64,000 bases of DNA from Lingula anatina. Its lineage: Eukaryota; Animalia; Brachiopoda. The stretch is from assembly GCA_051362555.1 (NCBI GenBank), contig CM120642.1:7812001-7876000 (forward strand), read 5' to 3'. The translations under genes were made by a program, and so were the position numbers. Below, in pieces: positions 143-39,700 of this stretch (positions within the stretch are counted from its first letter, which is position 1; every line of letters starts with the position of its first letter). The notes below the pieces were generated by a model. It did no database searches and was not told the DNA's origin. It was given only the letters and a program-made list of their open reading frames with translations.

Positions 143-1443
143 AAGAGTATATTGCAGCCGAAACAATCAAATTTATAAAAGTATTCCTGTACTTTCTGCT
201 TTCAGCATTTGAATGCTCATTGTTTGGTTCTCTCAGCATTGCCCTTTTCAGCACTGCGTTTTAATGGCATTTTACAAATGTGATGAGATCTGAAACATGA
301 TGCTCACGACACCCATTTGCATTGCCTCATGTACTTTTTTTTAACAACGAACCCGATTTTACCATTTTATCATTTATTTATTTCATTGTTATCGAACATT
401 TCTGATATGTGAAACGAGGTGCTAAAATGACGAAAACAGAGATCTGCTATCCACCAACTACATTTTAAACCGGCTGCAAGAAGAGGTCTGAAACTGGTCG
501 TTGGCTATCGTTTTTTGAGAGAATAAATGCTCATCAAAATCTTAATCACGCATGCATTTTTACTTGTTAAAACACAAATGAGCACATCGATGTTATACAT
601 AAATAGATGACCATATATTTACAGGTTGGACATCACGACTGTCTGTTATGACGTATGCTACATAAAGTTTCAAAATATCGTAACCCGCGATAGTAGCCCT
701 GACTTCATTGTGATAGATGCGACAGGTAAAATAGCGCACTCGCCTCTCAAAAATACAATTTCATAATTTTCGGTAACAGTCGTACGCTTTAACCATAAAG
801 TTCTTGGAGCGGGAATCATATATCTTGCAGGTTAGCCATTTACAAGATGAAGACATAAGGCATGCTGTATTTAGATACGGATGCCGTAGGTTGCACAGTA
901 GTGGGCGCACAGGTGGCTCACAGTTTTATAGGTAAAGTTCAGATTCGGTCGTCCAAAGGACGAACAAGGGACGCAGAAGCATTTACACTGGGACACGATT
1001 TAATTGCTTTGGCGACCATTGATTGGCCTGACCACAATTTTGATCGTAGATGGGACACTGAAAGAACGCCTTCCAGTGAAAAGGGGGCTTAAAGGAATTT
1101 GTTCTACGTACACGGTGTGATCTAATTAAGAGTGTGATAAATGTTGAATCAATTCATTGCAATCTACACATTCCTAACTACAAGTGTGTGCGTGTATTGA
1201 ATCAAGTGCGATACACGCATAATAACTTGCATACACATGTGCTAAGCGAAACTGGTATTCCAGTAATTTCTCCTTTTCGACAAAATTCGACGTGAGCTAG
1301 TTAAATGTTAGTATTTCTAACCATGTGACATTTTACCAAGCGTGTACCTTTACTGAAGAAGGTATCATCAAAGCGTTACCAGGCAACTGCGTTGCGTCTC
1401 TAGTGAACCAAGTGCTAATAACGTCTTCCAAACCAAGCGCGGG

Positions 1444-4241
1444 TTAATTGTACACAATCCAGTCAGCTGTGTTACCGAATCCTGTGGCAGCGTGTATTTC
1501 CGTCACCTCATTAAATTGTTCCTTGTCCCACCGGATGCTTCTTTGCCATCCGGGGACACTGCCTCTTCCAATTACAATAGTGGACGCCGTTGTATTCCAT
1601 TTCAACCAGAAGGAATAATATTTCTTAGAACTTATGAGGTCTCGAAATTGAAATGAACTAATATGTGTGTCGTTGTCATTGATTCCCGGGATTTTTAATA
1701 TCATGGCTGGACTGGTGATGTTCAAATCGACGGCATACTGGCAACAGGTAATGACGAACGCGAAAACACTTTTTACACGTTCTTTTACTATGATGTTTAC
1801 TTCATCGCCTGAAAATGAACACAGAATTGGATGAAATAAATATAAATCATGATCAGATATTCAACAACAAAATTACAACGAAGTCACGATGAAAACTTTT
1901 TTCGTTCTTCGTACCTTTTACGTCAAAACGAACGCGGTCCCGCCTCGAGAGATCAGATATGGGGAACCTGACAGAATAAGTGATGTTATCCGGTGTGGAA
2001 AAGTTGAAGGAAGATCTAGTAACACCTGGAAACAAAAAAGCATTATCAAAACGTTTGAATCCACAAAGAAGGTGTAGGAAAATCAAAGCAGGAAAAGCAC
2101 TTCGTAAAGGTTTTAAAACCACCAGTTTTCTTACCACACGACACGAGGCCAGCAGTTTTTTTATGTTGACACTTATTAAAGAAAATATCAAAACAACGCT
2201 TGTGAACAAACAAAGTTGGAATGTTTAAAAGTAGTCTGTCTGAAACCGACCGGAATTAGGACCAAAGATACATACGCTCATTTCATTTATTATTAACCGA
2301 AGTGGAATGCGGTACTTAAGAACCAGACGTGGTCCAAGCTGTGATAAATGCCATTGGAGGTTACCAGCACATTACTTACCAATTTTTATTTTGCTTGATT
2401 TACTCCCAAATTCTGCAAAGAAATATATTTAGAAAAAATGAAGATGCCACAAATTATAATTATGGGACGACGTTTTTTATTTTTAAACTACATCTTTATA
2501 TATATTAATGATTTGCGGGCATCTAGTGGCGATGAAAACGAGACAAAACATAAAATCATCATTTCTTGCGTTTTGATAAACCATTTTTGACTCACCTGAC
2601 ACCACAATTGCAGTTATTCCGCCAACAATTAAAAGAAGTGCCAAAGCTGCCATTATCTTCATTTTTGCAGTAAATATAGCGGGCGGTTCTCTAATGTCAC
2701 TATCCTGTCCACGCGGGTCTTAAAAACAAAACAATCATGTCAGAACATAAGCCAATATAGGTACTTAGCCAGTTGTCAACCATTACCGCCAGCAAGCAGC
2801 ACAGGTAATGCCACATTTTTTGTTTTGACCACAGTACTTTAAAATGGCCAAATATGCACACATTAGCATGGTCCCTGTATTCAATGACAGACCACCATCT
2901 CAGTCCTCGAGTAGAGTGCTGATTCACTTGAGTGATTTCAGACAATGGCTTACTTTCGATTTTCCGACATTTCGTCTGAACACAAATTGGGACAAAATTC
3001 TTGCAGAAATCATTTTATCAACAATCAAAGAATTAAGAAGGATGCACACAGCTCCACATTCGAGGTCTCGTAGGGTTCATCAGGAGGAGGGTACTAGCCT
3101 GTATTGCAGCCAGGGGAGGGCACACATGCTACTAAACAATAAGCTACCATTTATGCAACATTATTGTAAGCAAAAGCATATAAAACCCATACAGATAAAA
3201 AACATGCGTTTTTTTTGCCCAATAAAAATATTACACCAACACTATATACAGACTTGACATTTAATATGGAATATTTCAGTTTCGAAGGTATGCCTAGGTA
3301 AAAATGTTTTCTTTTTTCCAAAAAAAATCAGATCTCACATAAGATACGAGAATGGAGAAGTGTGTTGTCAGGTGTGTCGCTACCAATTAACAGACTACCT
3401 TGCCTGATGCACTGCTGCATTGTGTTATATGCAGTGATTTTATTGGGTAGTGCTTTTTTGGGCTGGTCAAAGCTTGGCTTTGGCGAAGCATGGTTCTGTC
3501 AAAAAAGTATCCATATGTCGGCAACTACTGCATAGAAAAAATTGAAATTTTGCATGCGAGCGGCAGTTTTGCAGTTCGTAAAATGAATTAAGCAGTGTTT
3601 TACAAAATAGTATATCTGTGCCAGAATGGCGCGAAAAAGACAAGCATTGCCAGACAGATTATTGTGTCACACGGAATGGTGGCCCGCACAGTTTTATAGA
3701 GTTAGGCCCAGATTGATGTACGTACACAAAGGCCACGTCCAATGTATCTAAATATTACCGCCAGGGTACAGGACTCACTGTCCTTTCGGTAGAAGACTGA
3801 TACTGTGTGGCTTACTTTATTGAGGTAAGATTTCACCTGTACCGCTCAACAAGTCAATACAGAGTTTACAGACATCCTGGGGAAGCCTACGATGAAGCGT
3901 GTGCTGCGTTTTAAGTGACTAGGGTCATTGACAATGTCGACATCTGGAGTGGATACCACATTGTATGTATGTATGTATGTATGTATGTAGTAATTAGGGA
4001 TAATAATGGCCTATATTTGTACGTTGAAGCCTTTTGTCGGTTGGCAGGACGAGGTATCGCTTTGCCTTCCATACGATTGCTTGTTCTATGTGTCTGTGAT
4101 CAAATAAGAAAGTATGTTCTTACCATTTTCATTGAAATCACCGGCAATGGTGTCATTTACATCGTGGCAAAGTTTGTCATTACAGAAATCTTCCGTCACA
4201 TAAATATTCTCAACGGCACGGGTACTACTAGATGCATTCAT
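1444..4241 (-). CDS. Family gene G1: predicted type II membrane protein (~249 aa) with Methyltransf_FA-like ectodomain; exons 4241-4124, 2718-2596, 2412-2380, 2025-1915, 1808-1444
   Basis: All introns are GT-AG and phase 1, and the exons total 750 nt of open frame. Translation: MNASSSTRAVENIYVTEDFCNDKLCHDVNDTIAGDFNEN|DPRGQDSDIREPPAIFTAKMKIMAALALLLIVGGITAIVVS|EFGSKSSKIKI|GVTRSSFNFSTPDNITYSVRFPISDLSRRDRVRFDVK|GDEVNIIVK...ITCC...FWLKWN...IVIGRG...ATGFGNTADWIVYN. The FWxxW..IxIGRG..TGFG...W pattern resembles Methyltransf_FA (PF12248). The same exon structure occurs in three paralogs. Confidence 0.85.
2835..3035 (+). repeat. Dispersed repeat (probable Tc1-derived 5' fragment) in G1 intron 1
   Basis: Aligns by eye with ~18930-19120 (CCAAATATGC...CTGTATTCARTGACAGAYCACCATCT...AGACAATGGCT...ACAAATTGG). 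Confidence 0.6.
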
Positions 4242-5268
4242 CTTTGATATGGTTCAAAATCTTAATGTCAATTTCAAATCCAACTTGGACAGCAAACCAC
4301 GACAAAATAGTAACCCAATCTGTCTATCTATCTATCATATAAAAATTGTCACAGACAACTTCAGAAATACTCTTGCACTCCTAGTCACATCAAAATATTT
4401 GACAAAAATGATACAGTACCAGTATTTGTCGTACAAAGGTTAAGATACTGTATATCACTAAGATTGACATTCGATCAGATAAAATCCTTTCTGGCCAAAG
4501 TGTTATTTACATTTGTATATTTAACCTGTCCATGATATGTCATTTTTGTGAACCGCATTCCTCCACATTTGTCATGGTCATTGTTGTCCCTTTATATTGT
4601 GACAGCTGAATTAAATGCATTCAGCGTCACGTTTCACATCCGAAACATGAGGCTTACTACATAAAATTGCACTACCCCTTGTAACTGTTTTTAAAACGAA
4701 ACTGATTTTTCCAGCGTCATGCGTGAACCATTCAAATATGGCATTGTTCTCGAACATACTTGATATTTGATACGAGGCACTTAAATGATGAGAACACGCC
4801 ATCATATTTGCCTGTCATTAACGCAATGTCTTAATCGACTACAACAAAGAATTTTAAAATTGACTGTGTATATGATTTGCAGTGTTTTGAATTAAAAGGG
4901 CATTTTTGCAAGATTAAAAATGCTGACCGAAAACTAAATTAGGTTAGCGCACACACAGAGTTTAACCCTACAATGCATCAATAGAAGAAGCATATTAAGA
5001 ATATAATGGATTACGACAAAATTTCATATGTATGGAATGTTTATTGAGAACTATGTTAGATCGAGACTTTTTCAATCTGACTGCGCAATCTTGTTTGTGT
5101 ATATATGACAGCAGGTATTATGCACTCGCCTCTCAATACAATTCCAAAATTTCTGTTAAGCTGTGATCTCTACCTTTAGAACGAGAATCAATTTTTGCAA
5201 TCTTTGCATTTGGAAAATGTCGATAATGAAGACATAAAACATGGTTGCTCTTAGATACTGATGAAAAG

Positions 5269-5308
<40 letters not shown>

Positions 5309-5680
5309 TTTCAGTTTCTCAATTTTAATTGTTGTTCATTAGTAAAACAATATCTATCCAATTTCAAGGTAAAAATACTAATAATTGATTATCTTCAGTC
5401 TTGACAAAGGTAACGATAAACGGAATAGATATCAAATAAGGCAAAAAGTCTAAAAGTTGCATTATGTAGGTTAAAACAATCCTCTTTGGAAAACATTGCT
5501 GAAAAATTGTAGCTTTCAGACTCTCAAATAATTTTGCCTTTCATACATTGCAATTAACTAAATAAACTTAAAATAATCACTTGAACGAAAAAAATTGTGT
5601 CATAATAACACGAATAATTGCAGGTGGATGTTTAACACTGAAGGGAATAACACATGCACGCCGTGGGCCTGACAAATATA

Positions 5681-6122
5681 CAGCATTGGTCAAAAAGGTT
5701 GTCCCACCCCCATTTCCATGTACTTTTATTTACAAATGATCACCTTACAGCTGTAAATTGTTAGAAATAGTGCCTTTTATTACGGATACCGTGTCTAACA
5801 TGATTAATGGTTTAAAAAATACAAAATAGTGGTGAAAATATACATATTTTATACCATTTAGTAAAATTTATAAGAGGTACCCCCTCAAATCGACTGTTTC
5901 ACTGTGACTTCTACAGATGTAAAGAAATGTCTATAAAATTTAAAAGACGCCATCAAATGTCACCAAATTCACACACAATTAGCATTAGGGTGTGCTCGTT
6001 AAAGATCACGTGCCTAGCAGCGTGTGCGTCTACCGCTGCAGTACGCGTACAGCTGTGAGGTGATCATTTGTAAATAAAAGTACATGGAAATGTGGGTGGG
6101 ACAACCTTTTTGACCAATGTTG
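5681..6122. mobile_element. Tc1/mariner-type MITE (~440 bp)
   Basis: Near-perfect terminal inverted repeats of ~75 bp (CAGCATTGGTCAAAAAGGTTGTCCCACCC... and ...GGGTGGGACAACCTTTTTGACCAATGTTG), flanked by TA on both sides, with no ORF. Confidence 0.9.
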
Positions 6123-6404
6123 TAAGTTTTCGTGTTATTGATTCAGTGTGATATACTATAGTACCTGGCAAAATAGTTTTGTGCATGCTCTCGGGCCCAA
6201 GTGTGATCTTGAACAGTGTTTGGTTAATGCTTACCACAGGGCACCTGAGACTGGTATTTTTATTTTTTGTTCACAACAAAAAATGGACACATAAAAACAA
6301 CGCATGAATAAAGCCGTCAAACTGCTCTTAAACAAAAACTATGATATATTCTGTTGGAAATTACAAGCACATGATGGATCTGCAATATCGTTCGTATCAC
6401 TTAC

Positions 6405-7340
6405 CAGTTTTTACTTTGCTAGCTTTACTACCCACTGCTGTAAGGAATTAGCGAATCAAAACATCGTACGTTAAACAACAACACTTTCTTTTAAACTAAC
6501 TAGAAAAGCACTCCGAGAGCGCAGACCTCCGTCAAGGCAGCAATTTTTTATTATTATTGATTATTGATTATTGATTGATTATTGATACAGATCACCACCA
6601 AATCATCATCTGTTCCTTGGCCCACTTTTGACAGTTCCTGAAAATTTCATCAATATCGGTCCATAACTTTTTGAGTTATGTTGATGACAGACAGACAAAC
6701 AAACAAACAAACAAACAGGGGTGAAAAAATAACCTCCTTGGCGGAGGTAAATATACATTTTAATAATTTGGCGACTCCTAGCGGTGATGCCAACAAGTCA
6801 ATTTGATTGCCTTTCACGAAAACTTTTCCAGCAGACTTTTACTCTATGCAAATGTACTTTTATAATTTCATACCGAGTCATCCCTCTTCTTGTGTTTTGA
6901 CAAACTATTCTTAGACTCACCTGACAACACAATTGCAGTTATTCCGGCAATAATTAAAAGAAGTGCCATTATTTTCAGTTTTGTAGTGGGTAAACTAATC
7001 TCACTATCTTGTGCGCTAGGGTGGGTAAATTGTCCGACTAGAGATATAAGCACTAAACTAAGGCATTACATGTATATGGTGTTTTCCATTACGGTGATAT
7101 GATTTTTCCTTTATTATCCCTGTCAAGAGAAAGTTGGCTTAGTAATGTTAAAGTCAGCAAAAAGAATATGACATTCGTATGAACAGTATGCATTCTTTAT
7201 GCATTAATGTGTTTGCGTGCGTATGTTTGTATGCTTAACTTACCGTTTTCCTTGACATCCTCAGAAATACTGTCATATATATCGTCCCAACGTTGATTAT
7301 AAACATTTTCTACGACATAAACACTTGCAAGTGCACTCAT
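6405..7340 (-). CDS. Family copy G2: tail, TM and stalk exons only (7340-7244, 7037-6921, 6437-6405); ectodomain exons absent. Either a truncated paralog or an alternative 5' cassette
   Basis: Translation MSALASVYVVENVYNQRWDDIYDSISEDVKEN|VGQFTHPSAQDSEISLPTTKLKIMALLLIIAGITAIVLS|AVGSKASKVKT, with intact GT-AG sites and phase 1 junctions. I found no counterpart of exons 4-5 between 6400 and 4300. Sequence at ~6130-6160 and ~5100-5260 instead resembles the 3' flank of G1 (~1190-1220 and ~720-880). Confidence 0.7.
6497..6750 (+). mobile_element. Short non-autonomous element, Helentron/HINE-like, copy 1
   Basis: Starts AACTAGAAAAGCACTCCGAGAGCGCAGACCTCCGTCAAGG, has internal ACAG/ACAA microsatellites and ends in the hairpin ACCTCCTTGGCGGAGGT, which is also an inverted match to the 5' subterminal motif. 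A second copy lies at 12815. Confidence 0.7.
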
Positions 7341-8491
7341 ATTTTGACATGTAGAGATAAGATCCAAAATGTTCCTACAAATTAAAACCCAGCTGGAATG
7401 GCGGGCCAGCTCAAAGTAATGAAACGACTAATGCATGAAGGCTACAATGGACTGTGAAACATGAAGCTGAACAGATCAATGCACCACTTGCCCTCCATTT
7501 TAACCATATATGGTATTTGTTTCTTTTAAATGCGATTTACGCATCATTCATACATTTGCCGCTCCAAATGACTGTCTGTTGTGATAGCCGTGATTGGTGA
7601 TATCAACGTCATGTTTCAGATCACACTGTATAAAAGTACTGGCATTTGAAACGTTTAAATCCCGGCATCAAATTACATTGCCTCCTGTTATTTTTTACGG
7701 CGACACTGGTTTATCCAGAATCATGCTTGCATTATTCTATTTGACTCACCTCATTCTATTTGACATTGTTTTCGAACTCACTTGGTTTTTAAGGGGAACT
7801 ATAATAATGAAAACACGCCAATAACATGACTTCTTATCAATGTTCATTCTAGAGCGACTACCAGATGTTTCATAGAATGAATTTGACATAGATTTTAATG
7901 AAAAAATTCTGATCGATCTGTGGAAATGAACTGGTCAACCCTGTATGCATATTTTGGATGGATGTATAGAATGCAGAAAAAAACAGTGGTAGAATGTTTT
8001 CTCAAAATATTTTTAATCACACAGATCTACATATTCAACAGTGTCTGTGTAATTTTTAAGAAGTCTATTGCAATATGCACGTTCCGAAAAATGAGTCTAT
8101 GGAATCAAGCCTGATGCAAGCGGAAATGCTAATGTTGGACATGCTAATGTTAAGACAAAAGTTGCATCCAGCAGAAACAATGTTCGAAATTTGGCCTAGG
8201 ACTGCATTTATTAGAACGCCCCACTCATGAAATTGGAGTTTGAAGTTAGGTTACATGTAGCAATAAATTGTAGCAAATAAAAATGTACTTTTTTTTATTC
8301 ATCATGATATAGAAACAAATTGACGCCGGTCGAGTATCAGGAATTCCAACATACATGTAGTAATTCAAGTGCTGTGTGGAATTTTACAGTGCCTGTACCT
8401 TTATTAAGGAAAGGGCCATCAAAATGTTACTGGGCAACTGTGACGCGTTCTGAATGAACCAATTACTCATGTCCTCCAAACAAAGTGTGGT

Positions 8492-10324
8492 TTAGTTGTA
8501 CACAATCCAGTCAGCTGTGTGACCGAATCCTGTGGCAGCGTGTATTTCCGTCACCTCATTTAAGTGTCCCGTTGTCCACCGGATGCTCGATTGCCATCCG
8601 GGGACAGTACCTCTTCCAATTACTATAGTGGATGTCGATGTATTCCATTTTAACCAGAAGGGATAATATGTTTTTGAGCTTATGAGATCGCGTTTGAAAT
8701 ATGCATTAGTAAGTACGGCGTTGTCATTCATGCTCGGAATTCTTAATACCACGGCGGGAGTGGTGATATTCAAATTGCGAAAATGCTCACAGCAGGTAAT
8801 GACGAATGTGAAAGCACTTTTTCCACGCTGTTTGATTATGATGCAAACTTCCTCGCCTGAAAATCAGAGATTTGAGTGAAATAAAAGTAAATTATAAAAC
8901 ATATCAGACTATTTTAAATACGAAGAGAGCCAAAAAAACTTTTTTATTCAAATTTCGTACCTCTTACGTCAAAACGAACACGGTCCCGTCTGGCGAGATC
9001 AGATATGGGGAACTTGACGGAATAATTAATGTTATCCGGAGTGGAAAATTTGAACAAAGATCTCGTAACACCTGGAAACAAAAGAGTGCATCAAAAAAGA
9101 TAATCAAAACATTGAAGTCAACAAGAAGGCTTAGATATTCAAACACAGAAAATCCACATAATACAAAGGAGTATTTCAACCACTGGTATACGTACCACAG
9201 AGCAGTCTTGATTGAACTTTTATCCTTTAATTTGAAAAAAAAAAGGATGTAGCAAATGAGCATATGTGAAGAAACAGACACAGACTCCTCTTAAATCTGC
9301 ATCTGTAATAAATGCCGTCGGAAGTAACCCACCCTAGAGATATTGTTTGTGTTGTAGGCAAAAACGTTTTTGTTACTTACCAACTCGGCTTGATTTACCA
9401 ACTTCTGAAATAAATGAATTTTGATAATTCAAGATGCTGTACGAAATAGGGCAACGCAACTTTTTCTGAAACTGCACATGCACGAAAATAGATTCAGTGA
9501 CACCTAGCGCCAGTGACAATGAAGTACTATAAATAATTTCCTTCTAAAAAAACTTTGTCCAAAAATTCTTACATATAAATTTATTGTTTTCTTAAGCCAT
9601 ACTTAAATCTATTTCTTTTTGTGTTATGAAAAACTATTTTTAACTCACCTGACACCACAATTGCAATTAATCCGCCAACAATTAAAAGAAGTGCCAAGGC
9701 TGCCATTATTTTCAGTTTTGTAGTAAATAGAGCAGGAGGTTCTCTAATCTCACTATCCTGTCCACGTGGGTCTTAAAAACACAAACGTTCATATCAGAAC
9801 AAACGCCAGTGCAGTTACATGGGGATGTGCCGCAGCACAGGTAATGTGGAAAGTTATGTTAATTTGCCTGTCAAGCTGTCTGCAATTTCACTATACCGTC
9901 TTTCCCCTCGAATCTGTTTTTTTAATCTCGGTCTACATGAAACAATGATCGTTGTATTGCTTCAAGTTTTAAAATTGTCAGTATTCGTGTTTTAAATGAA
10001 CCATGCTTCACAAAAAAATGACAATTTAAACACCTTTGTGTCCACAAGCAACTGTTGTATACCTGACGGATATGCAAAAAGGGGAGTCTCTTTTTTCACG
10101 TTTTGAAGATAACTTAAAGGTACCAAACAAAAATAAACACTACAAGATGAAGGAAGTAAAATCAGCAGAAATCAAACAACAGTATGTATGTATGTATGTA
10201 TGCGAAACATACCATTTTCCTTGAAATCACCAGGAATAGTGTCATCGTACCGTTGTTGGTCATTACAGAAATCTTGCGTCACATAAACATTTTCCACAGC
10301 ACGAACACGTTGAGGAGCACTCAT
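8492..10324 (-). CDS. Family gene G3: predicted type II membrane protein (~244 aa) with Methyltransf_FA-like ectodomain; exons 10324-10213, 9771-9649, 9404-9381, 9071-8961, 8856-8492
   Basis: GT-AG phase 1 junctions, 735 nt open frame: MSAPQRVRAVENVYVTQDFCNDQQRYDDTIPGDFKEN|DPRGQDSEIREPPALFTTKLKIMAALALLLIVGGLIAIVVS|EVGKSSRV|GVTRSLFKFSTPDNINYSVKFP...|...ATGFGHTADWIVYN. Exon 4 and 5 lengths (111 and 365 nt) are identical to G1. Confidence 0.85.
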
Positions 10325-11450
10325 CTTTGGTATGAAAATATGTAGTTTGAAATATCTCTCCAATTTTAAAGCCAGCTTGGACAGTGAGTCACATAAAAAG
10401 ACGAAACAACAAACAAGTGTTTTAACGATGTGGGAATGCGACAATGGTTTCTGAAATGTGAGACTGAATGAATCAAATGATGGCTTGTAGCTCATCATAT
10501 TTTAAACGCAATGTGCACATAATTCATATTTTCCACCATTCTCTAAGCTTAAACCACTGCATGCTTTGATCGCTTTCGTGTCAAAATGTCGCTTACTTCT
10601 TTGTTTCCTGAGTGGGGTAACTGTGTATGGTGACATCAACATCATGTTTCACATCGCATTATATAAATTGTATGGCCTTTGAAACTTGTTTTGGTCCCTG
10701 TATTAAACTGCTTCGCCTAGTATAGTGTTTTAAATCGAATCTGATTCACCTGGAATCGTGCTTGTGTCATTCTTATTTGACATTGTTCTCGGGCTCGCTT
10801 GATATTTGGAACTAAAATGATGAAATCACGCAAAACAAACAAAAAAATGAACATGCTTCTCATCAGTGCCCGCTCTAAATCGACTATAAGTTGGGTGAAT
10901 TTGAAATCTAGCGTTGGCATGGTTTGAAGTTTATTAGGGAAAATTTCAGTAGGCCATCATTTGTCATATTAATATTAATACAAAATGGTTCAACAACTGC
11001 CAGTGAGATATATATATATATATATATATATTATTATATATTATTATATATATATTATCCACTGTAAAATAAAGTTTGTTCTTAGCGTTTTCCATATCCT
11101 GATTACCTTATGACATATATCTAGTGAGTAACAAGTGTGAATTCTTGGTTATTTTGTCACAGGGATACATGGGTTCAGCTTGCAGGGAGATACATTACAC
11201 TTTATCCGACAATACACGTGCACACAATACCACACACACACAAACACACACACACACACACACACATTGCTATTAGATTTTAATAGGTCATTTTAGTAGT
11301 TATGAATTGAAGTAAGAAGATTAGTTTAACTCTCGGGGAATTTTTCCATGATATTTTATTCAAAATTTGCCAATTTTCAAAAAAGATCCAAGTGAGGTAT
11401 GTTTATTACATAATTGTGACATAATGTCCACACAATTAATGTACTAAGCT

Positions 11451-14400
11451 CTAACATGCTGTTGCTTGTAATGATCTTTTTTTTTTACATTGGGTGATAG
11501 GAGCACAGGAATAATCCAGCTGATTTGCTGGGTTTCCTAAGGCAAATATGTTCAATATAACGTTCCATGCAAGGCGATCGAGCGTGCAGGCCACAGTTGG
11601 AAGCGGGGCACGTTTTTCCCTTGATTTAGCATTATCCATGGACAGAAACTCCTCTCTCATGGAACTTTTGGCTTCGCTTCTAGTTTTCCTAGACAGCACC
11701 GCCTTCAACCGGGAACCTTGGTCTCCCTCAGAAGTTTCAGGTGGGTTGGACACTGCAAAAAGAAAAAAAAGATAGAAGGCACAGAAGTGAGAATAATTTG
11801 TTCAATGAGTCCTAGTGATTGAAAACATGTGACGAATACGCTCTACCGGTGGATGTTAGATATGACCAACAGGTGGGCATTTGTGGCCATTTCTCTATCC
11901 CATCACGTTATATATATATATATATATATAACTTTTCGTGGTCTGAGTTTGGAAAGACACTGCTTGGACCGAAAAGGACTATTTTGTTAAGGAGTACTTA
12001 TTATGTTATTGATATAAAAACATTTAAAAAGTTAATCCGTTGTCTGTAATACTACATTAAATACTCGTAAATATGAAGAGTTGGCGACCTGGTCAGGCCC
12101 ATTCTGAGATCCAAAGTACACGTAAGGCATTTTCCCTCACTTCTTATGACTTTATATATTTTATGTATCTACTCTCAAGGTCAATTTAGTCAACATTTGG
12201 CCACACAAGGATCTTTGTAAGGGGGGACCAAAAGCCCTTTCACTACTGGTTAAGATAAGAAGCCTCATCAAGAGGCATATGTAACTGATAAAGTCTGTGA
12301 CGGTTCACTTTTGGAGGTCCTAATAGGTAATCGCGCGACAGAGGGTTATACTCGAGCTCTCAACAAGTCCGCAACCTGCTGCGTAGCCGCTTAGGTGACT
12401 GTGGGTTTCGCCAGGCAGGCCATAAATGTGTTATTCTCGCAATGTGAACCAGTACAGTGTGTCGCTTAAGTATAGGCCTAACGCTCGATATGAAGAGGAC
12501 CTGATTGAACGCCGGTGTTGTCACTCCTACCTTCTCGTTTTCGTCTCCCAGGTGGCGGCACCAGACCAGGTGTTATCGACAACGCCCCAGTTCCCACCAG
12601 GTTGCACGAGTCTTCTACGCATGCCCATTGAGGTACTTGGAAATTGTATTCCACCGTTAGCTGACACAACAACAGCACGATAGGCTGAAATTGGAACATA
12701 GGCAAGTAGGTAAAATATATGCTGATCAAGAAACATGGGCAAAGCAGATGGAATGAGCTGATAATGAATAAAAGAAAGACAATAAATTGCAGTAAAGTAG
12801 TTGAAATGCATTGATAACTAGAATAGCACTCAGAGAGAGCAGTCCTCTGCCAAGACAAATGATAAACTTATAATTAAGCATTGATTAATTAAAGGTCATC
12901 ATGTTTGACCTATCCTGAAAATTTCCTCAAAATCCGCCCATAACCTTTTGCATTATGATGCTAACAGCCAGTCAAGCTAACAAACTAATGGAACCAAAAG
13001 ATAACCTCCTTGACGGAGATAATGAACTGTCTGGTAGGGCTCATTCCTAAAGAAACTATCGGTCTACGTAGATCTATGCAATTCTGCGGGGAGTCTCGCT
13101 GTATGCAATCAGTTTAACATATAAACACGCCCCTCTTGATTCCAACAGCTTTTCTGTATTCTACTCAACGTCCGGAGGTGTGTAAATGTCTTAATCTGAT
13201 TGCATTCAACGAGAGTCCCAGGGAGTTGGATCGATCTACGTAGACCTATTGTTTCATTGGCAATGGGCCCTTAGCGTACTAATGTGAGGAGATGCTGTAG
13301 TTTTACCAGCGGTCATCTTTTCGCTCTTCCTGTTAGATAAAATATTCTCTTACAGGGCATTTACTTTACATCATTTTATAAGAACTCGTGTTTCAAAAAT
13401 AAATTGAAATATTCATATCCAGTACGTTACAATTTTCATCACTTAACTCAACATGTAGGCCTACATACGTAATTTGAATTATGTCTCCCAAAGAGGAATG
13501 TGATGCTCGTGCTGCTTGCATGAAAAGGTACAAAGATTCCGTGTAAAATTTAACAAATGATTAACTGCTCATCTACAACTAGTGTATGTGTGTGTGTGAA
13601 AGTCTTGGTATCTTCATACACATACCGTAAAAAATTCAACGAAAATCTGCGGCAATCCTAGACTGTTTAAACCAATGCAATCAAAGGTCTTCGTGTTGCA
13701 GTCTTGGTCATTTTGGCAGGATGATCCTTGAACTACAATGATATGCACACCTTAAACATCGTGTAATCAATTAACTTCGTGAAACTTCAAATATGTTAGA
13801 AAAAGTTAACATTAAATGTTGTTTTATCATAAGCAATCAAGAGAAGCAGTGACATCACGGAGAAAAAACACGGAGTATACTGCTAGAAGATGTGCCGCTC
13901 TGTAAACGTTTCTGAGTTTTTTTTTAACGTTTTAAGTTCACATAAAAATGTTATTAACTTTAAACACATTTTGCTTTATATTTATCTTGATGTATTATTT
14001 GTTGTTTGTATTTCCGGCACGCCCCCGCCATGCGCTATTGCACCCTGATTACATGCATGTATTAGATCACAAGATTAGATATATCTTGTCGAAATTAATT
14101 CAGTGCACGAAATGAGTATACGAAATTTTTGGCCCAGAAATGTCCTTCTGTAAAGTAGTTCACGCATCTTGGATGTCGGGGATGTGAGATGTGAGCTTCT
14201 CTCACATTTTGTGGCCGTTGTTTTTCTCTCGCCCACTTTTTTCTCCATTGTATGGAGGATGTATGTGTCACAATTAGTTTCATGCTGTTTTGATCATCCC
14301 CCATAACTTTATATTTAATATATTTTCGTCATTTGAATAAATGAAAGATTTCAGTCATGTGCACTTAGTATTATTTACTTTTGAGCAGAAAACAGCTCTG

Positions 14401-14717
14401 CTGAGCTTGTGAACATTTGCCTACATGAATTCAACACCATGAAACTACAGAGAAGACAAAATGACCTGCACAAATTCACTAAAAGACACAAAATGCGCGC
14501 TAGACCTAAACATAGCAAAAAATATCCTGGAAAATAAAACTGTTTTTAAAAAACTTTTCATATATAGGTATACCATATTTGAAACTGTTAACGAACTTAC
14601 GATCTGCATACAACCCAAGTTTAAAATTTCTGCATGTTTGGTCACTCTCGTAAAGAAGATAAAACCTGGTGACTTTTTGCACGTAAAGGTATAAACAGCA
14701 TATTAGACCCCCCCCCC

Positions 14718-14758
<41 letters not shown>

Positions 14759-14959
14759 TACTGTTCTGGCACGTTCCATTCGGCAAGGGTACAGTGGTCA
14801 GCGGGCAGAGACACGCCTGAGGGGAGCCGACTATAAACGTGAACAGCAGCGGATTCCGTACACAGCGTGTGTTATCGCCACAAGCCAGTGGTGGAGTTCC
14901 GATCGCTTCTGTACTCGAACAAGCACTGAAAAGGCTTGTACTGTTATCGTTTGTATACC
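11451..14959 (-). CDS. Unrecognised cysteine-rich protein with proprotein-convertase-like sites (at least ~253 aa, first exon unresolved); exons 14959-14762, 13732-13626, 12684-12531, 11752-11451
   Basis: Four GC-richer blocks with polypyrimidine-AG acceptors and GT donors join in frame (phases 1-1, 1-0, 0-1, 1-stop): YTNDNSTSLFSACSSTEAIGTPPLACGDNTRCVRNPLLFTFIVGSPQACLCPLTTVPLPNGTCQN|IQGSSCQNDQDCNTKTFDCIGLNSLGLPQIFVEFFT|PIVLLLCQLTVEYNFQVPQWACVEDSCNLVGTGALSITPGLVPPPGRRKRE|VSNPPETSE...SREKRAPLPTVACTLDRLAWNVILNIFALGNPANQLDYSCAPITQCKKKRSLQATAC. Confidence 0.65.
12815..13023 (+). mobile_element. Short non-autonomous element, Helentron/HINE-like, copy 2 (more diverged)
   Basis: AACTAGAATAGCACTCAGAGAG...CCTGAAAATTTC...CCATAAC...ATAACCTCCTTGACGGAGATAAT aligns by eye with 6497-6750. 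Confidence 0.7.
13037..13270. mobile_element. Palindromic MITE, possibly PIF/Harbinger-type, copy 1
   Basis: Long imperfect inverted arms (GGGCTCATT...GGTCTACGTAGATC...TGCAATCAG and CTGATTGCA...GATCTACGTAGACC...AATGGGCCC) followed by TTA. A related copy lies at 16525. Confidence 0.7.
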
Positions 14960-16524
14960 CTGAAAATATAGGATACTCCTCTGTATGAATTGGCTTCCAT
15001 GGCTTTCACTTATCTCCACAGAAAGTGCTTTTTGGTGTTGCATTTGATATCACATGCTTAGCTTTGAAAAATACTACTACACGGTTTAACGAACCCACCC
15101 AGCATAGAATTGCATACTGTTTAAAATTGCTAGAAATTGTGAAGGTAAATCATTTATTTAAGTTTATAATTTTAAGAGACAATACAGAATTGTTCTAGTC
15201 TCCATGTTTCCTGTAGATGGACATATCTATGTATAATAAAGGAAAGTCAAAGTGAGTATACCTATAAGTGGCGGGATGACGGACATGGCTCACTTTAAAA
15301 TGCTGGTCTGAAACAAAGAATAACACTTACAGATGAAGAAAGATGTATACCCCATGTTACACAATAGAAGCCTCTGTCAACAAAGGAAACATGGATAAGA
15401 ACTTTTGATTTGAGAAAAAAACTTAGATGCAGTGCGTGAAAAGTAATGAATCGTAAAATTATATTGTTTGTCTTCTAAGAGACACCGAGGCCAGCTGAGA
15501 AATGACGTTAATTCTACGCAAAACTTCTCGCTGGACATGTACACTGCAATGCCATCTATTTCTAACCGGGAGTAAATAATTTGGCTTGGCGCCGTTAGAA
15601 ACTCAGCGTAGCGCTTGGGTGGTAAACGCTCTTTACATTCTGTGTTTCTTTGCATGATTGTCTGGCAAACGTCACGTTTGGAGGAATTTCCCAAAACTGC
15701 ACAGGCGATATTGCATTGTTATGCAAGCGATTACTGCCAGAAAAAAATAGTTAAAACTATTAATAGCCTACTTCTTGGAGAAGGGGGGTCGTCAAATGCC
15801 AGTGCCATATTAATTTTGTAAAATGTGATCATAAATTTTACTCGCATATCATCGCCGGCTTACAGTACAGAGTGTTTAGAATTATCTAATTAGTTATATT
15901 AGGAATATATAAAGTGAAAAAATCAGCCTGTGACCAGGTAGAGAGCATCTTGTATTTACCTGTGAGTACTTGTGCTTGCGAGTAATCGGATGGAGTAGAG
16001 TGTCTCCTGTCACTTCAAGCTCCTGAACGTCTACTGTAGTCGTCCATTACAGTCATGCGATCACTTACCTAGAAGATCAAATCAATGCTCCTCTCTCGGC
16101 CGGTAAATTTAAAGCCGCTTCCGTTTATTTGATTGGATACGGCGTATTCATTAACAGTAATTTTGCAAGGAACATACCTCAACCTCTTAACGGTGCATGT
16201 ATGCATGCAGATGATAATGACTATGTTGGTGAGTTTCATAGTCAAGATATCATGCCGGGTTCTTGCTAATTACGTTAATTATATTGCAGAGAATGTCTTT
16301 AACTACCGTTTATCTCTAAAATACTAAATGTCGTGTAGAAAATTATCATACAGTAAGCCTAATATGTGTACAGATAAACGACGCATCCTTATCGTTAAAC
16401 ACAGAACTTTATTGTTTGACCATAGTAGTGCTAGTAATAAACTGCGACCATCAAGTGACTTTGGCTGCGGTATTCTAATCAAAGCATTACATCTGCGTTT
16501 TATCGAGAGAAGTACTTGTCTTAA

Positions 16525-16780
16525 GGTGCATTCACAATGCAGCTATTGCACGAGGTAGATCGATCAAACTCCGAGGGTACCTTAGCCGAATGTAGTCAGA
16601 TTAACTAATTCACACGCCTCTTCTTTTTTACAACGTGCGCGTGTAATTAACAGCTTTTCTGTTTTCTATATACTTAGCGCCAGGGAGGAATGCTAAACTT
16701 TTAATCTGATGCATTCGGTGAGAGTCCCCGCGGAGTTGGATTGATCTACCTAGTACGATGGTATCATTGTGAACGCACCC
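16525..16780. mobile_element. Palindromic MITE, possibly PIF/Harbinger-type, copy 2
   Basis: TAA-GGTGCATTCACAATG...AGGTAGATCGATC and GATTGATCTACCT...CATTGTGAACGCACCC-TTA. It shares the internal AACAGCTTTTCTG core with 13037-13270. Confidence 0.7.
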
Positions 16781-17807
16781 TTATTCTTAAGCATTCGCCT
16801 GTCATTAAAAATAAAATATTACTGTAAAAAATGAAGAGGAAATAGAAAACGGTAAACAGATTTTAATAACGGCCAGATTTGACCATTAAAATGCACGCTT
16901 TACCTGAAGCACCATTAAGATCAGCTTAACACAGGTATTTACAAATAATTTTATACTTCAGCAGCAGAGCTGGGTAACGTAAAAGTAAAGAATGCACGAT
17001 ATAAACGTAGGCTTCAAAATATATGTGGGTGTCTGCGACGCAGACATAGTTTCCAGGACAAAATTCATCTCTTAACTTCGGTTCAGAACCGAGCCTTGAA
17101 ATTACTGTATGTCTTACGAAAATATCCCCTAGAAATCAATTCGATCATAATGAATTCTTGTCTTTAAGCAATTACAGACAATACGGATATTTTAATGTTT
17201 TAAAGATACACCTACGTATCTCTATTCCACTATTATACTTTGAAAGCACGTGCGTCGAACACTGAAGTAATTGTTTAAGTATATTAATCAGCGTATATTT
17301 ATTTTTAAAGTGCGGTGTAACAAGTCCTAAACAAGTGTGATTTAGGTGTTACAAATAGTTTTTTTTTTTGCGTGTAACTAATTTGTTGCCAACATACGAT
17401 TCAAATACCTTTAACTATTGACCTGAGGTCTATACGTCTGAATAGGTACATGTGATACCTCCAAACTTTTAAGAGCGATATTTCATAGTGCTTGTTTACC
17501 AAATCCAACACAATCTACACGCTTTGTACCTCTATAGGGTTTGTGCATGTGTATTAAATCAAGTGTGATGCAGGCACGGTATGTCAGTTCAAATGTGCAA
17601 TTGGTTTGATTAAAAATCACAAACTGTGCCTGCCACTGATCCTGACGCAGAGAAAAACCAGTGTGAGGTCATATATTGTTCCCATGGCAGTTCACGTGTC
17701 AGTTGTAAGTCTGAACTAAAGGAAATGCCAGTGAAGTCTTCCCAGGCAATGGCTATGCATTGCTAGTGAGCCAAGTGAACCAGTTCGTCTTCCGAGCCAA
17801 ACTTTGG

Positions 17808-20293
17808 TTAAATGTACACAATCCAGTCAGCCGTGTAACCGAATCCTGTGGCACCGTGTATTTCTGTCACCTCATTAAACTGTTCCTTTGTATACCGGAT
17901 GCTACTTTGCCATCCGGGGACAATACCCTGTCCAAATGCTATAGTGGATGTCGTTGTATTCCATTTTAACCAGAAGGCATAATATTTTCTTGAACCTATC
18001 AGGTCTCGAAATTGATACCCATAATTAATAACAGGATCGTCGAACATGCTTGGAATTTTCAATAAAATGGCTGGATTGGTAATATTTAATCCATAAACAT
18101 ACATACAACAGGTAATGACGAATGTGAAAGCACTTCTTCCACGCTCTTTGATTATGATGTAAACCTCATCGCCTGAAAATTAAGGCAGAATTCAATTTAA
18201 TAAATATAAATGCTAATCAAAAATCGGCCATTATACCACTATGTTGTGCCCTTTGAAAGCAGAAAGAATACTTACTTAACTGTACCGTACCTTTCACGTC
18301 AAAACGAACGCGGTCCCGCCTGGAGAAATCAGAGATGGGGAACTTGATAGAATAATTGATGTTATCCGGTGTGGAAAAGTTGAATGTAAATTTGGAATTA
18401 CCTAGAAAGGTAAGTACATCAAAACATCAGACTTCACAAAGAAAATGAAGGGAATTCCAAGCAAGAAAATCATTTAAGAAATAAAAGTCTCTGGGAAAGT
18501 CTTACCACAAAACATCCGAGACTGGCACTGGCAATGTTACTCTAAAAACAGAATACATCTAAACAAGACATGGCAAGCAAGAGAATCCCGTTGATCGAAA
18601 CGTATTATTAATGCCCTTGTTATATGGAAAATTATTGTGATAGATAACGCCAGAAAACGTACATGCCACTTACCAATGTTTACTTCAGTCGATTTACTGA
18701 TGAGTTCTGAAAGGAAACACGGATAGATGATATATTAATGTAACATTTTCTGTTTATATATATTTCAAAATAACTTGTCGGCACCTATTGCTGATGACAA
18801 GAGGCACTGTGAGTGATTTCCTTCCATGGAAATCCTAGTAACTCTTACTTAAATAGATGTATTATTTAAGGCATACTAAAATATACTAGCCAAATAAAGA
18901 AACGCAAGTATATGTTTTCACCACAGAGCTTCAAAACGACCAAATATGCGTATGTGAGTATGGCCACTGTATTCAGTGACAGATCACCATCTGAGACCTA
19001 TAGCAGAGGACTGATACGCTTGTGTGACATTAGACAATGGCTAGCTTAGATTTTCAGACGTCTCATTTGAAAACAAATTGGCACAAGGTCTTGCATTATT
19101 TTGTTGTCCACCATCAATGCTATATGACACTGGCATCATAATCCGAGTTAGAAGACTTAATTACAAGTTAACATCATGCCGCGGCCATCTGATCTGGACA
19201 AGTTTCGTACCATTGGCCATTGCTTTTGGTACAGTTTTATGATTTTGGCGGTCACAAGTGGCAATTTCCAGACTGGAATTGTGGTGATTGTGTCATGAAA
19301 GCATCAACACCCAACCCTACTTTTGCTCCAGCAGGACAACGCCCGTTGTATATATTCCATTTTGTGGTTTAGGGCACTATCTTCTACTAGTACTAACCTG
19401 ACATCACAATTGAAGTTATTCCACCAGTAATTAAAAGAAGTCCCAAGGCTACCATTGTCTTCAGTTTTGTAGTTTGTTTACCAGGCGTTCCACTGACTTC
19501 ACTCCTTTGGTCTTAAACGAACAAATAATAATAATAATAACAATAATAATAATAATTATTATTATTATTATATCAGAACATACGTGTAAAGTAGTGCGCA
19601 TGTTGAAACAAGTATATCTATTCTTCCAATAATAATAATAATAATAATAATAAGTTTCTTATTTGGCCCTTTATATACTACCTCAAGGCGCCTTACAATG
19701 AAAATATAAGTAACATCACTAAAATCACTACAATGTTTTAATCTAAAACACTCATCGGAACCATTTAAACTTAACACTACTAAAAACTCAATCTTATTAA
19801 AACTATATAAAAAATTAAGAGCAATAGACAGATTTAAAAATGTGGGTCTTTAGAAGGTACGGATTATGTAACAAGCAATGAATGGCACTAAAAATGTACA
19901 TTCATCACAAAAAAAGTCCAACACAAGTTCAAACGGGAATCTCCATCTAGCTGTTGATAGTAAATAAGCTCGAAAATTGCTTATCAGCAAAGCAGTTTGT
20001 TGGTACAATTTATAAAATGAGGACACTTAACTACGAATCGTTTTACACAATACACAGGTGTTTCAGAAGGCGCTTTGTATTTTCCATCTGGTCCAACTAT
20101 TAAACCAAAGACTGCACATTATGCACTTCTTAACAATTATATTGTTGCGTCCATTTTACTAATGTGTGTATTTTTTTAACTTACCGTTTTTATTGAAAGT
20201 GCCAGGAATAGTATCATATATAGCGTACCTATTTTGGCCATCATCGTATTTCATATCATATCCCACGGGATTAGCCCCTCCAGTGGAACTCAT
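17808..20293 (-). CDS. Family gene G4: predicted type II membrane protein (~243 aa) with Methyltransf_FA-like ectodomain; exons 20293-20185, 19511-19398, 18706-18674, 18401-18291, 18172-17808
   Basis: GT-AG phase 1 junctions, 732 nt open frame: MSSTGGANPVGYDMKYDDGQNRYAIYDTIPGTFNKN|DQRSEVSGTPGKQTTKLKTMVALGLLLITGGITSIVMS|ELISKSTEVNI|GNSKFTFNFSTPDNINYSIKFP...|...ATGFGYTADWIVYI. Confidence 0.85.
18930..19350 (+). repeat. Dispersed repeat (probable Tc1 remnant) in G4 intron 2
   Basis: Homologous to 2835-3035. It is followed by a degenerate transposase-like start (MPRPSDLDKFRTIG) and a CAGCAGGACAACGCCCG (QQDNAR-like) fragment. Confidence 0.55.
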
Positions 20294-27930: not shown

Positions 27931-29037
27931 ATGGTAAGCAACGTTAGTACCTTCAACTACATCAATTATAACTTGTCCATCCTCTACCCAGATTTGAACG
28001 AGGGGCATTTTTGTTGGTTTACGCACGAAGCGTGCTGGTGCACTACAATATACATCATTGCCGCCATTGGGCTTCTTGCTAACGGAACAACGTTTCTCGT
28101 CGTCCTGTGTAGTCGAAGGCTTAGAAACAAGTCTACATTCACGTACATACTGTTTTTGGCCGCCGCAGATAACTGTGCGTTACTTTTCCAAGCTTATGAA
28201 TGCGTGACATTCAATAGTGTACGGCCGAACACAAGGGACTTGTGCTTATTTGACAGCATTGGGACATATTTCAACGATTGTTTTCTGTACTTGTCCATCT
28301 TCTACGTGTTGGCGGTGACCGTAGAACGGTTAATCATCGTGAAAAAACCGCTTCAAGCGTCGGTTTTATGTACTAAAAAGATCGCTGTGATTACTTGTTT
28401 AAGCATAGCTGCAGCCGTGGTGGTTTTAAATACCTACGATCTGGCGCGCTGCTCCGTAGATCCAGTAGTCCGATTGAGCATGAGAGACGTCGGAAATTAT
28501 GTGTATACGTTTGGCCACACGGCCATATCTATTTTCCTTGCAGTGGTCGCTGTTCTGATAGTTTGGAAACTCCGTAACGTCAGCAAGTTGCGTAAGGAAA
28601 TGGCGCCATCGTCCATCGGTGTTTCTTCTCACAGGAGAACACATGCGCTTCTCTTGGTGACGACTTTCAGTTTCATTATCCTTAATTGGCCTATTTATGG
28701 GTTCGAAATCTACATGTCCACTCTCGAAATGCAAGGGCACCGGATCCGAAAGGACATACCTAACATTTATCTGGTGATCCGAGAAGGTTTGTTTCTCCTC
28801 AGCAAAACCAATCACTGCGTCAATTTCTTTCTGTATGTTGCCTCCGCCAAAATATTCCGGGACGAAGTGAAACACGTGTGTTGCCGCACCGTTGTAGCTA
28901 CCTGGCAAGAACGTAGCATTGGAAGCAGTGTAGGCGGGGCGAGGCGTCCGAAGCGAGCGACAGGGGAGGCCTACAAGAGTACACACGAGGAATTTGGTCA
29001 GCGGGGGTCAAGCTGGACAATCACTACGTCTCTGTAG
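27931..29037 (+). CDS. Rhodopsin-like (class A) GPCR, intronless CDS, ~368 aa, resembling the invertebrate FMRFamide/sex-peptide-receptor-like orphan group
   Basis: Seven hydrophobic segments with GLLAN (TM1), LAAAD (TM2), TVERL (DRY equivalent), FIILNWP (TM6) and NHCVNFFLY-ASAKIFR (TM7 and helix 8). N-terminal NVS and NLS sequons and a CC motif after helix 8. First in-frame ATG at 27931, just after a candidate splice acceptor near 27910. Confidence 0.92.
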   Translation: MVSNVSTFNYINYNLSILYPDLNEGHFCWFTHEACWCTTIYIIAAIGLLANGTTFLVVLCSRRLRNKSTFTYILFLAAADNCALLFQAYECVTFNSVRPNTRDLCLFDSIGTYFNDCFLYLSIFYVLAVTVERLIIVKKPLQASVLCTKKIAVITCLSIAAAVVVLNTYDLARCSVDPVVRLSMRDVGNYVYTFGHTAISIFLAVVAVLIVWKLRNVSKLRKEMAPSSIGVSSHRRTHALLLVTTFSFIILNWPIYGFEIYMSTLEMQGHRIRKDIPNIYLVIREGLFLLSKTNHCVNFFLYVASAKIFRDEVKHVCCRTVVATWQERSIGSSVGGARRPKRATGEAYKSTHEEFGQRGSSWTITTSL

Positions 29038-37752: not shown

Positions 37753-39700
37753 CTAAAAGTAAACAATTCAAACATTAAAACTGAACTTTCACATCTTATC
37801 GTGAGTCAGGTAGTGATATAAATCATGGGGTATTCCAAATACACATTTTTTTTTTGAAAAGAGAAATAAGACTGATTCCTTTACAAAGGGCAACAATGTT
37901 TACAATCTTTGTGAATTCCTTGATCCGCCGGTGCAAATCAACAGTCACCATAGCAGACATTTAATTTAACTCATTCGTGTATTTATAAAGCGATGCCATA
38001 TACAATTCCACATACAGGGTTACTAATTAATATGGAATATTTTTATCATTGTTATTTTTGAGTGCTGATTAAATTTTTATTTGGCTTGAGTTATTAAAAA
38101 AGTATGTCACTGAGTGATAATAACATATAGTCTTCTGTTGTGATATATTTTGGTCAATCATATCAAATCTGACATAAGATGCCATTCAAAAGAAAGGAAC
38201 ACCCCCAGAAAACCATATCAACAGCTTGATGTCAGTATAAACTTTAAGATAAGATATTAAAGAAAATGATAGCCTCCGGACAGTGATATGTTACACAGTC
38301 AAAGAACTCACTACAGTAAATCATGAAAAGTCAGTAATTGCGAGTATGACCTCCAGCAGCCGCTTGCAGCGCCCTCATCCTATATGGCATACCCCGTGAC
38401 ACGTTTTTTAGAGTTTGGGTGGGGATATCATTCCACGCAGTGATATTTGCCTGTCGCAGTTCATCACTATTTACCGGCCAAGGACCATAGCTATTAATTC
38501 TGTGAGTTACTTCCGCCCACAGATTTTCAATTGGGTTCATATCTGGAGAGTTTGCAGGCCAGGGCAGTTGCTGAACCCATTGGTTTTGAAGAAAAACAGT
38601 GATTCTGCGGCCTCGATGTGGGGTTGCGCAGTCGTCTTGGTACACAAAGTTGTTCCTGAAGATGACTCTTACCAATCGAAGCATTGTTTGCTGTAGAATG
38701 TCTCTGTAGGAATCCTGGATGAGGTTGCCTCCTAGAAAAACCAACTGGTTCTGGGCACCGACATGAAATGCTCCTCAAACAGAGACGTTACCATCCCCTG
38801 CTTGCACCCTAGGCAGTACACAATCATTGTTTTATGCCCCTCGTACACGTCGGTGGACACGGATTCGACGATTAACCCTAAAAAATCCATATTTGGCCTC
38901 ATCACTGAAAACAACGTGATTCCAGTGTTTTGGCTGCAAACGCACGTGGTCCCCAGCCCATTGCAGACGTCGCTGTATATGACCTGCTGTTAACAGTGGT
39001 TTCCCTACTGGCCTTCGTGCAAAATAACCGGCTTGCAGAAATCTCTTGTTCACGTGGGACCTTGAAACGGGCGTTTTAATGACATTCTGACTCTCTTTTC
39101 TGAGGACACTGGTTGTCTTTGTACGACCAGTACGGCGTCCTCTAAGGAGAAGGCGATCCTGTCTTCTTGGTGTGATACGCGGACACCCTGGTCGAGGTAT
39201 TGGAGTAGGGGCCCCTGTTACAGAATTTCTTTGGAGGACTTCACAAACGGTTCCTGATAAATGTTGAATTACCTGACAATGGCTGTCCGTTTCTGGCCAT
39301 TTTCTCTGAGAGCAAGAATCCCATAGTAAGCTGCGTTGCTTAGCTGTCGAACCATATCTTCACTAAGGTACCTGTCAAGTTTCAGAGCGATCTCTTTATT
39401 GCTTCTCTAAACACACTCCAAAGATTGACCAAACCCATGCGTTTTTATACAAGGGCAGAAATTGCCGAAAAGACCACCCCTCACATTTCTGACCACAGAA
39501 CATGCAACTGCATGCATCAATTGTTTCGAGAGTTGTGTGGTAATTAGGTAACACACCTGGCTACACATGGAGTGACACCTCAGCTTTGGATTTAAGTAGT
39601 TAGAGAGAAATTATATATTTTGTAGAAAATTTACTCGCCAAAAAATAATATTCCATATTAAGTGGTAACCCTGTAAGTTGGCCGTGCAAAATTTCCCTGT

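Follow-up and report, generated by a model that had tools for sequence, protein, structure and literature searches.

Two groups of described proteins come closest to the locus examined here. The first comprises the C-type lectin-like type II receptors of the natural killer (NK) complex, such as Ly49, Dectin-1 and the CLEC family, whose genes form tandem clusters with the tail, helix, stalk and ectodomain on separate exons. The second comprises proteins with the PF12248 domain (Methyltransf_FA, or FAMeT after farnesoic acid O-methyltransferase), which is widespread in invertebrate extracellular proteins, is misnamed as an enzyme and has, to our knowledge, no known ligand. A shrimp FAMeT protein reportedly responds to Vibrio and to white spot syndrome virus (WSSV; PMC3982035), and the domain also occurs in proteins automatically named CPAMD8. 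As far as the accessible parts of the sources go, its published contexts are the arthropod FAMeT proteins (PMC10015273), the secreted footprint adhesive proteins of a sea star (Sfp), where the role of the domain is called unknown (PMC9382459), and the abalone shell protein UP5, which has a signal peptide (PMC6003135). Arthropod FAMeT proteins have either two PF12248 domains or PF12248 followed by DUF3421. Here we describe a cluster of predicted genes in Lingula anatina, within a 64,000-nucleotide window (GCA_051362555.1, CM120642.1 positions 7,812,001-7,876,000; coordinates below are window positions), whose products would carry a divergent PF12248 domain after an N-terminal tail and one hydrophobic helix.

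The genes were rebuilt by coordinates after a minus-strand reading of window positions 1-22000. Three intact tandem copies, A (4241-1444), B (10324-8492) and D (20293-17808), and one partial copy, C (7340-6405), lie within 19 kb on one strand with identical intron phases. For A, B and D the rebuilt five-exon models are open, with 249, 244 and 243 residues and no internal stops, and follow a common plan of a 54-60-residue tail, one hydrophobic helix, a micro-exon stalk and two domain exons. All 12 introns of these models are GT-AG and all 12 are in phase 1, as an earlier sequence-only reading of this DNA had claimed, and its junctions between exons 1 and 2 (4124/2718, 10213/9771 and 20185/19511) are exact, GT-AG, in phase 1 and in frame. 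Its count of four copies with the full exon plan holds for A, B and D; copy C has an exon 1, a helix exon and a micro-exon, with no domain exons of its own. Window-wide DNA profiles match the domain exons three times and exon 1 four times, in agreement with tblastn, and the locus therefore contains three genes and one 5' half rather than four genes. The exons, all on the minus strand, are as follows.

4124..4241, minus: copy A exon 1, start codon and N-terminal tail (ENIY; YDxI site reads NDTI); open, 118 nt, phase-1 GT donor
2596..2718, minus: copy A exon 2, remaining tail and hydrophobic helix; second ATG at 2653
2380..2412, minus: copy A micro-exon (stalk, 11 codons); AG/GT, phase 1
1915..2025, minus: copy A domain exon 1, first strands of the PF12248-like domain
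1444..1808, minus: copy A domain exon 2, vicinal CC and stop codon; Pfam PF12248 E 0.061, hhalign 97%
7244..7340, minus: copy C exon 1 (ENVY and IYDSI), open
6921..7037, minus: copy C helix exon; in-frame alternative AG at 7037
6405..6437, minus: copy C micro-exon, not followed by domain exons of this copy
10213..10324, minus: copy B exon 1 (ENVY, YDDTI)
9649..9771, minus: copy B exon 2, hydrophobic helix; second ATG at 9706
9381..9404, minus: copy B micro-exon (8 codons)
8961..9071, minus: copy B domain exon 1
8492..8856, minus: copy B domain exon 2 and stop codon; RNA trace confined to a single bin in one run, mean depth 0.85
20185..20293, minus: copy D exon 1 (four tyrosines, including YAIYDTI)
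19398..19511, minus: copy D exon 2, hydrophobic helix; second ATG at 19455
18674..18706, minus: copy D micro-exon (11 codons)
18291..18401, minus: copy D domain exon 1
17808..18172, minus: copy D domain exon 2 and stop codon

Judged by profiles, the domain of A, B and D is a divergent member of PF12248, significant on custom profiles and, as far as the last exons alone go, below the Pfam cut-off. In a Pfam scan of the last exons alone, copy A reaches 13.5 bits (E 0.061) against a gathering cut-off of 24.2 bits, and B and D have no match. A custom profile was built from 110 sequences out of the best 120 of 147 short family members, collected via one profile match; it scores the three spliced models at 37.9, 36.5 and 27.1 bits, compared with 10.5 at most among 1,503 shuffled or reversed controls, and hhalign against the family gives 97% (E 6e-11) over the last 64 columns. 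The earlier assignment to Methyltransf_FA is thus borne out. The domain is collinear with its PF12248 homologues over the whole length of about 140-150 residues, in a global alignment of 141 columns whose middle third has low confidence. The N-terminal TPD..Y and F-x-V-K strands are kept, as is the C-terminal half with FWxxW, GxG and TGxG...W. The family signature D46, A47, E60, G64, N68 and R74 (at least 90% conserved among 94 members), in the most conserved middle part of the family, is replaced: DEVN/EEVC/DEVY stand opposite NDAH, FAFVITCC/FTFVITCC opposite YEIVIGGW, and K/R/K opposite R; the N..S.IR part is replaced as well. These replacements mark the three domains as a divergent subfamily. 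They differ from other PF12248 proteins also in standing behind a 54-60-residue tail and one helix, in an 8-residue insertion after the vicinal CC, and in carrying 3-5 N-glycosylation sequons. The CC pair itself, noted earlier and found in all three copies, occupies the G-W position of the family (GG-W vs T-C-C).

Wider searches returned few relatives. The three-copy profile gave six matches among 1.84 billion representatives, none at E 1e-10 or better; four are PF12248 proteins, none of them close, and the matches P0001 and P0003 were set aside as tandem-repeat artefacts. A mixed-profile word search gave four matches, and none of 101 candidate proteins of 210-2000 residues matched the last exon of A. 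Sequence searches of the PDB found no relative, returning either no matches or six Sir3 chains at E about 0.9.

The fold evidence comes from a canonical PF12248 member, whose model is an all-beta sandwich of 12 strands and one 4-residue helix that matches CBM66 and galectins at 6-13% identity (Foldseek, VIA). On this basis the domain of A, B and D is predicted to fold as a galectin/CBM66-like beta-sandwich. The ligand-binding type of fold proposed earlier thus holds for the canonical member; the AF2 model of the window's own last exon, from three sequences, had a predicted local distance difference test score (pLDDT) of 36 and was left unused. Galectins, CBM66 and legume-type (ConA-like) lectins differ from A, B and D in the same low identity and in the lack of a PDB sequence match. 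The sugar-binding motif of galectins, H-x-N-x-R ... W-G-x-E-x-R, was absent by eye from the three domain sequences. According to the part of the source available, deuterostome and bivalve galectins are typically without a signal sequence (PMC10343441), whereas A, B and D carry a helix and sequons. That these are membrane-bound farnesoic acid O-methyltransferases is scarcely credible: the Pfam name is all that speaks for it, the family model is all-beta and does not have the Rossmann-like alpha/beta fold that binds S-adenosylmethionine (SAM), no methyltransferase is among the 40 Foldseek and 50 VIA matches listed for it, and FAMeT is described as missing the SAM-binding motif in the accessible part of PMC3016881.

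Exon 1 is open in all four copies A-D (118, 112, 97 and 109 nucleotides, all 1 mod 3), the other two frames holding 2-12 stops. By chance, 15-20% of random intergenic stretches and 29-50% of neutrally mutated exon 1 sequences are open at these sizes. The ratio of nonsynonymous to synonymous substitution rates (dN/dS) in exon 1 is 0.43-0.69, the frame is kept through length changes in all four copies, and the start ATG has A at -3. Taken together, the openness, the lengths and the dN/dS make a moderately strong case that exon 1 is coding, which agrees with the tail claimed upstream of the helix. Each model has one strong hydrophobic run, starting at residue 55-61, with a best 19-residue Kyte-Doolittle mean of 2.8, 3.0 and 2.0 in A, B and D and preceded by 60, 58 and 54 hydrophilic residues, close to the 55-60 given earlier. 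The run contains no charged residue and has a small-xxx-small pattern in all four copies.

In all three models two lysines lie within the five residues before the helix and the five after it are neutral, which favours an N-in/C-out orientation. The domains of A, B and D carry 5, 3 and 4 sequons, where 110 canonical PF12248 domains average 0.74 (the earlier figure of 3-4 fits B and D, and A exceeds it), and three sites are kept in all three domains, one of them via a two-residue shift. A reversed orientation, with the N-terminus outside and a cytosolic domain serving as an SPRY-like interaction module as in butyrophilins, is very improbable, given the three retained sequon sites, the vicinal CC, the lysines directly before the helix and tails in B and D that have no sequon.

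We consider it about an even chance that A, B and D encode glycoproteins of the cell surface with type II topology, which present a rebuilt galectin-like PF12248 module for binding extracellular ligands, with somewhat different specificity per copy and with tails that serve trafficking and, in D, perhaps signalling. If translation starts at the exon 1 ATG, the helix would act as an uncleaved signal anchor, leaving the tail probably inside the cell and the domain glycosylated outside it, where it would likely bind ligands such as glycans. Differences between the paralogues are concentrated in the segment where the family signature is replaced; this segment may form the binding face, in which case the copies would bind different ligands. 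The gene family likely arose from a secreted gene with a signal peptide and PF12248 that acquired a further coding exon upstream before it was duplicated.

Two observations weigh against this type II topology, for which the coding tail, the proximal lysines and the sequons speak. In all four copies the helix begins at a second ATG, which has A in position -3 and G in position +4, and a start there would give a signal-like peptide of 16-19 residues ending at the exon boundary. When flanks of 15 residues are counted, the charge balance flips in A and B. No splice junction was seen over A, B and C in four partly read runs of RNA. These were four of nine same-species raw-read runs, mapped on 1001-10900 (copy D lies outside) at 9.5-12.4 million records per run, about 6%, 6%, 25% and 6% of each. 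The reads fell on interspersed repeats, and exon-bin depth was 0 except for 0.85 in bin 8591-8920 of one run, about two reads over the last exon of B with first mates on the plus strand. With no junction in the mapped runs, splicing is unconfirmed.

The second ATG in strong context makes a secreted form a live rival: either a secreted isoform exists, or the site, as the type II reading would have it, is the relic start codon of a secreted ancestor. Under this rival, leaky scanning or a promoter further downstream would make translation start at the helix ATG, or cleavage would remove a long signal peptide; the main products would then be soluble glycoproteins with a single domain, located in mucus, matrix or body fluid. 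Signal-peptide cleavage follows a -3/-1 rule, and the hydrophobic run ends in V-x-S where the exon ends in phase 1, a frequent arrangement in signal-peptide exons. The sea star footprint proteins and the abalone shell protein, in the parts of those papers that are accessible (PMC9382459, PMC6003135), are examples of FAMeT domains in such settings. Among 127 homologues, which are a sample and not a census since they were collected by similarity to one query and mostly have fewer than 260 residues, an N-terminal extension is missing in 94 and is free of hydrophobic runs in 23; 6 begin in a signal-like way, and 4 contain an internal hydrophobic run with the look of a mis-started signal peptide or of a gene-call artefact; none shows a clear layout of long tail, anchor and PF12248. 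We regard secretion as possible but doubtful, because exon 1 keeps its frame in all four copies with dN/dS below 1 and a start ATG with A at -3. Four of the homologues (P0012, P0013, P0034 and P0041) combine a signal-like start, a coiled-coil-like segment and one PF12248 domain, with CC after the segment in three, a layout like that of soluble collectin-type recognition proteins.

The RNA depth of 0 outside one bin, together with a copy C that has no domain, would also fit a decaying or silent cluster of recent duplicates that are no longer expressed. This is quite improbable: three copies are free of stops and frameshifts at a synonymous divergence (dS) of 0.34-0.50, whole-protein dN/dS is 0.52-0.69 at 61-72% pairwise identity, in line with purifying selection, and the RNA runs were read only to the fractions given above. 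The ratio is below 1 throughout the domain as well, where no positive selection was found; the earlier claim of diversification is not supported in this sense.

The tyrosine motifs on which the sequence-only reading had placed weight are real in part. Copies A, B and C carry ENxY; YD[ST]I is confined to C and D, its site reading VNDTI in A and YDDTI in B. The tail of A has a single tyrosine and no tyrosine aligns across all four tails; D-[TS]-I with a following N is what the copies have in common at the YDxI site. A scan of the four tails found no immunoreceptor tyrosine-based inhibitory motif (ITIM) and no NxxY; YxxI is present in two, D and the partial copy C, and a loose pattern like the hemi-immunoreceptor tyrosine-based activation motif (hemITAM) in C only. 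We take the isoleucine before the tyrosine and the nearby acidic residues to resemble Src-family substrate sites. The claim of conserved tyrosine signalling tails is accordingly weak. The tails would most likely serve trafficking or uptake, and kinase-dependent signalling may be possible for D through YDTI. Overall, what was first noticed was mostly real and was overstated; an immune signalling role is unproven.

The lack of a conserved tyrosine motif and of a charged helix residue would suit type II proteins for adhesion, matrix anchoring or biomineral contact, with neither non-self recognition nor tail signalling. The published non-arthropod contexts of the domain, in the parts available, are adhesive footprints and shell matrix, and a crude pattern scan found no kappa-B site or interferon-stimulated response element (ISRE) in the 800 bases that precede each copy. 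Tandem duplication in which the differences centre on one part of the domain fits recognition instead, if weakly, and so does the neighbouring mosaic gene of SRCR and lectin exons described below; we hold the adhesive role to be unlikely.

Compared with the NK-complex receptors, the cluster shares the tandem arrangement, the distribution of tail, helix, stalk and ectodomain over separate exons, and a tyrosine content that varies between paralogues. It differs in its ectodomain, which is a predicted beta-sandwich and not a C-type lectin domain (the three last exons have no Lectin_C match at E up to 10), in the lack of an ITIM and of a charged helix residue in A-D, and in five-exon models that have no stalk cysteine in the stretch from helix to domain. 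The earlier comparison with Ly49 and Dectin therefore stands for layout and fails as homology; it is an analogy only. A literature search covering few subscription journals found no membrane-anchored PF12248 family, as the earlier reading had supposed, and no description of the PF12248 fold. The architecture thus appears undescribed, on the strength of one locus known from its sequence. A small single-domain membrane-anchored family with three natural variants would offer a simple test bed for the PF12248 ligand. Should the proteins prove to be recognition receptors, the type II receptor-cluster layout of vertebrate C-type lectin receptors would be extended by a new ectodomain, and a secreted protein would have turned into a receptor by the gain of one exon.

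Copy C has lost the paralogous acceptor of its helix exon and offers in-frame AGs at 7052, 7037 and 7007. Its three exons have open frames, and the phase-1 donor that ends them lies about 4 kb upstream of the micro-exon and domain exons of A; on these grounds it is a possible alternative 5' half for A. A more far-reaching proposal, which we offer tentatively and think rather unlikely, is that an NK-complex-like cluster of type II recognition receptors was built independently in an invertebrate lineage starting from a FAMeT gene of galectin fold whose product was secreted; the binding face would have been rebuilt and be diversifying, and the tails would be paired, with and without YxxI. Copy C would then be an alternative module of promoter, tail and anchor, spliced onto the domain exons of A so as to give the same sensor a tyrosine-bearing tail. 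The segments 7595-7821 and 10628-10834, which precede the start codons of C and B by about 300-500 bases, match each other at 68%, and a weaker match lies upstream of A; this shared segment is possibly a promoter common to the copies.

An extra micro-exon ending at a TGTG|GTA site, present in all four copies, was left out of the models because no phase-1 acceptor is common to the copies and because A and D would meet a stop. The donor-like sites lie at about 2134, 6234, 9195 and 18505, with no shared in-frame acceptor. In B, C and D the codons before them read Q-S-x-x-x-C, B and D differing from each other synonymously, and the sites may represent a dead or unrecognised cysteine-bearing stalk micro-exon.

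The neighbourhood of the cluster includes, at 36941-61189 on the minus strand, one or more large mosaic genes with many SRCR exons, a C-type-lectin-like exon and PAN, CUB, fibrinogen-like and WSC pieces. A canonical PF12248 domain lies in this region at 55151-55450 (E 3.8e-20), with its first half near 55952-56239; thus canonical and remodelled forms are found about 35 kb apart. The mosaic region also contains a broken Tc1/mariner-like transposase at 38334-39359 on the minus strand (DDE_3 E 2.3e-06). At 27931-29037 on the plus strand is a single-exon rhodopsin-family G protein-coupled receptor of 368 residues (7tm_1 E 2.7e-10; Srw E 1.1e-13). Between copies B and D, a 240-base self-inverted element resembling a miniature inverted-repeat transposable element (MITE) occupies 13036-13271, and a related copy is found at 16649-16783.

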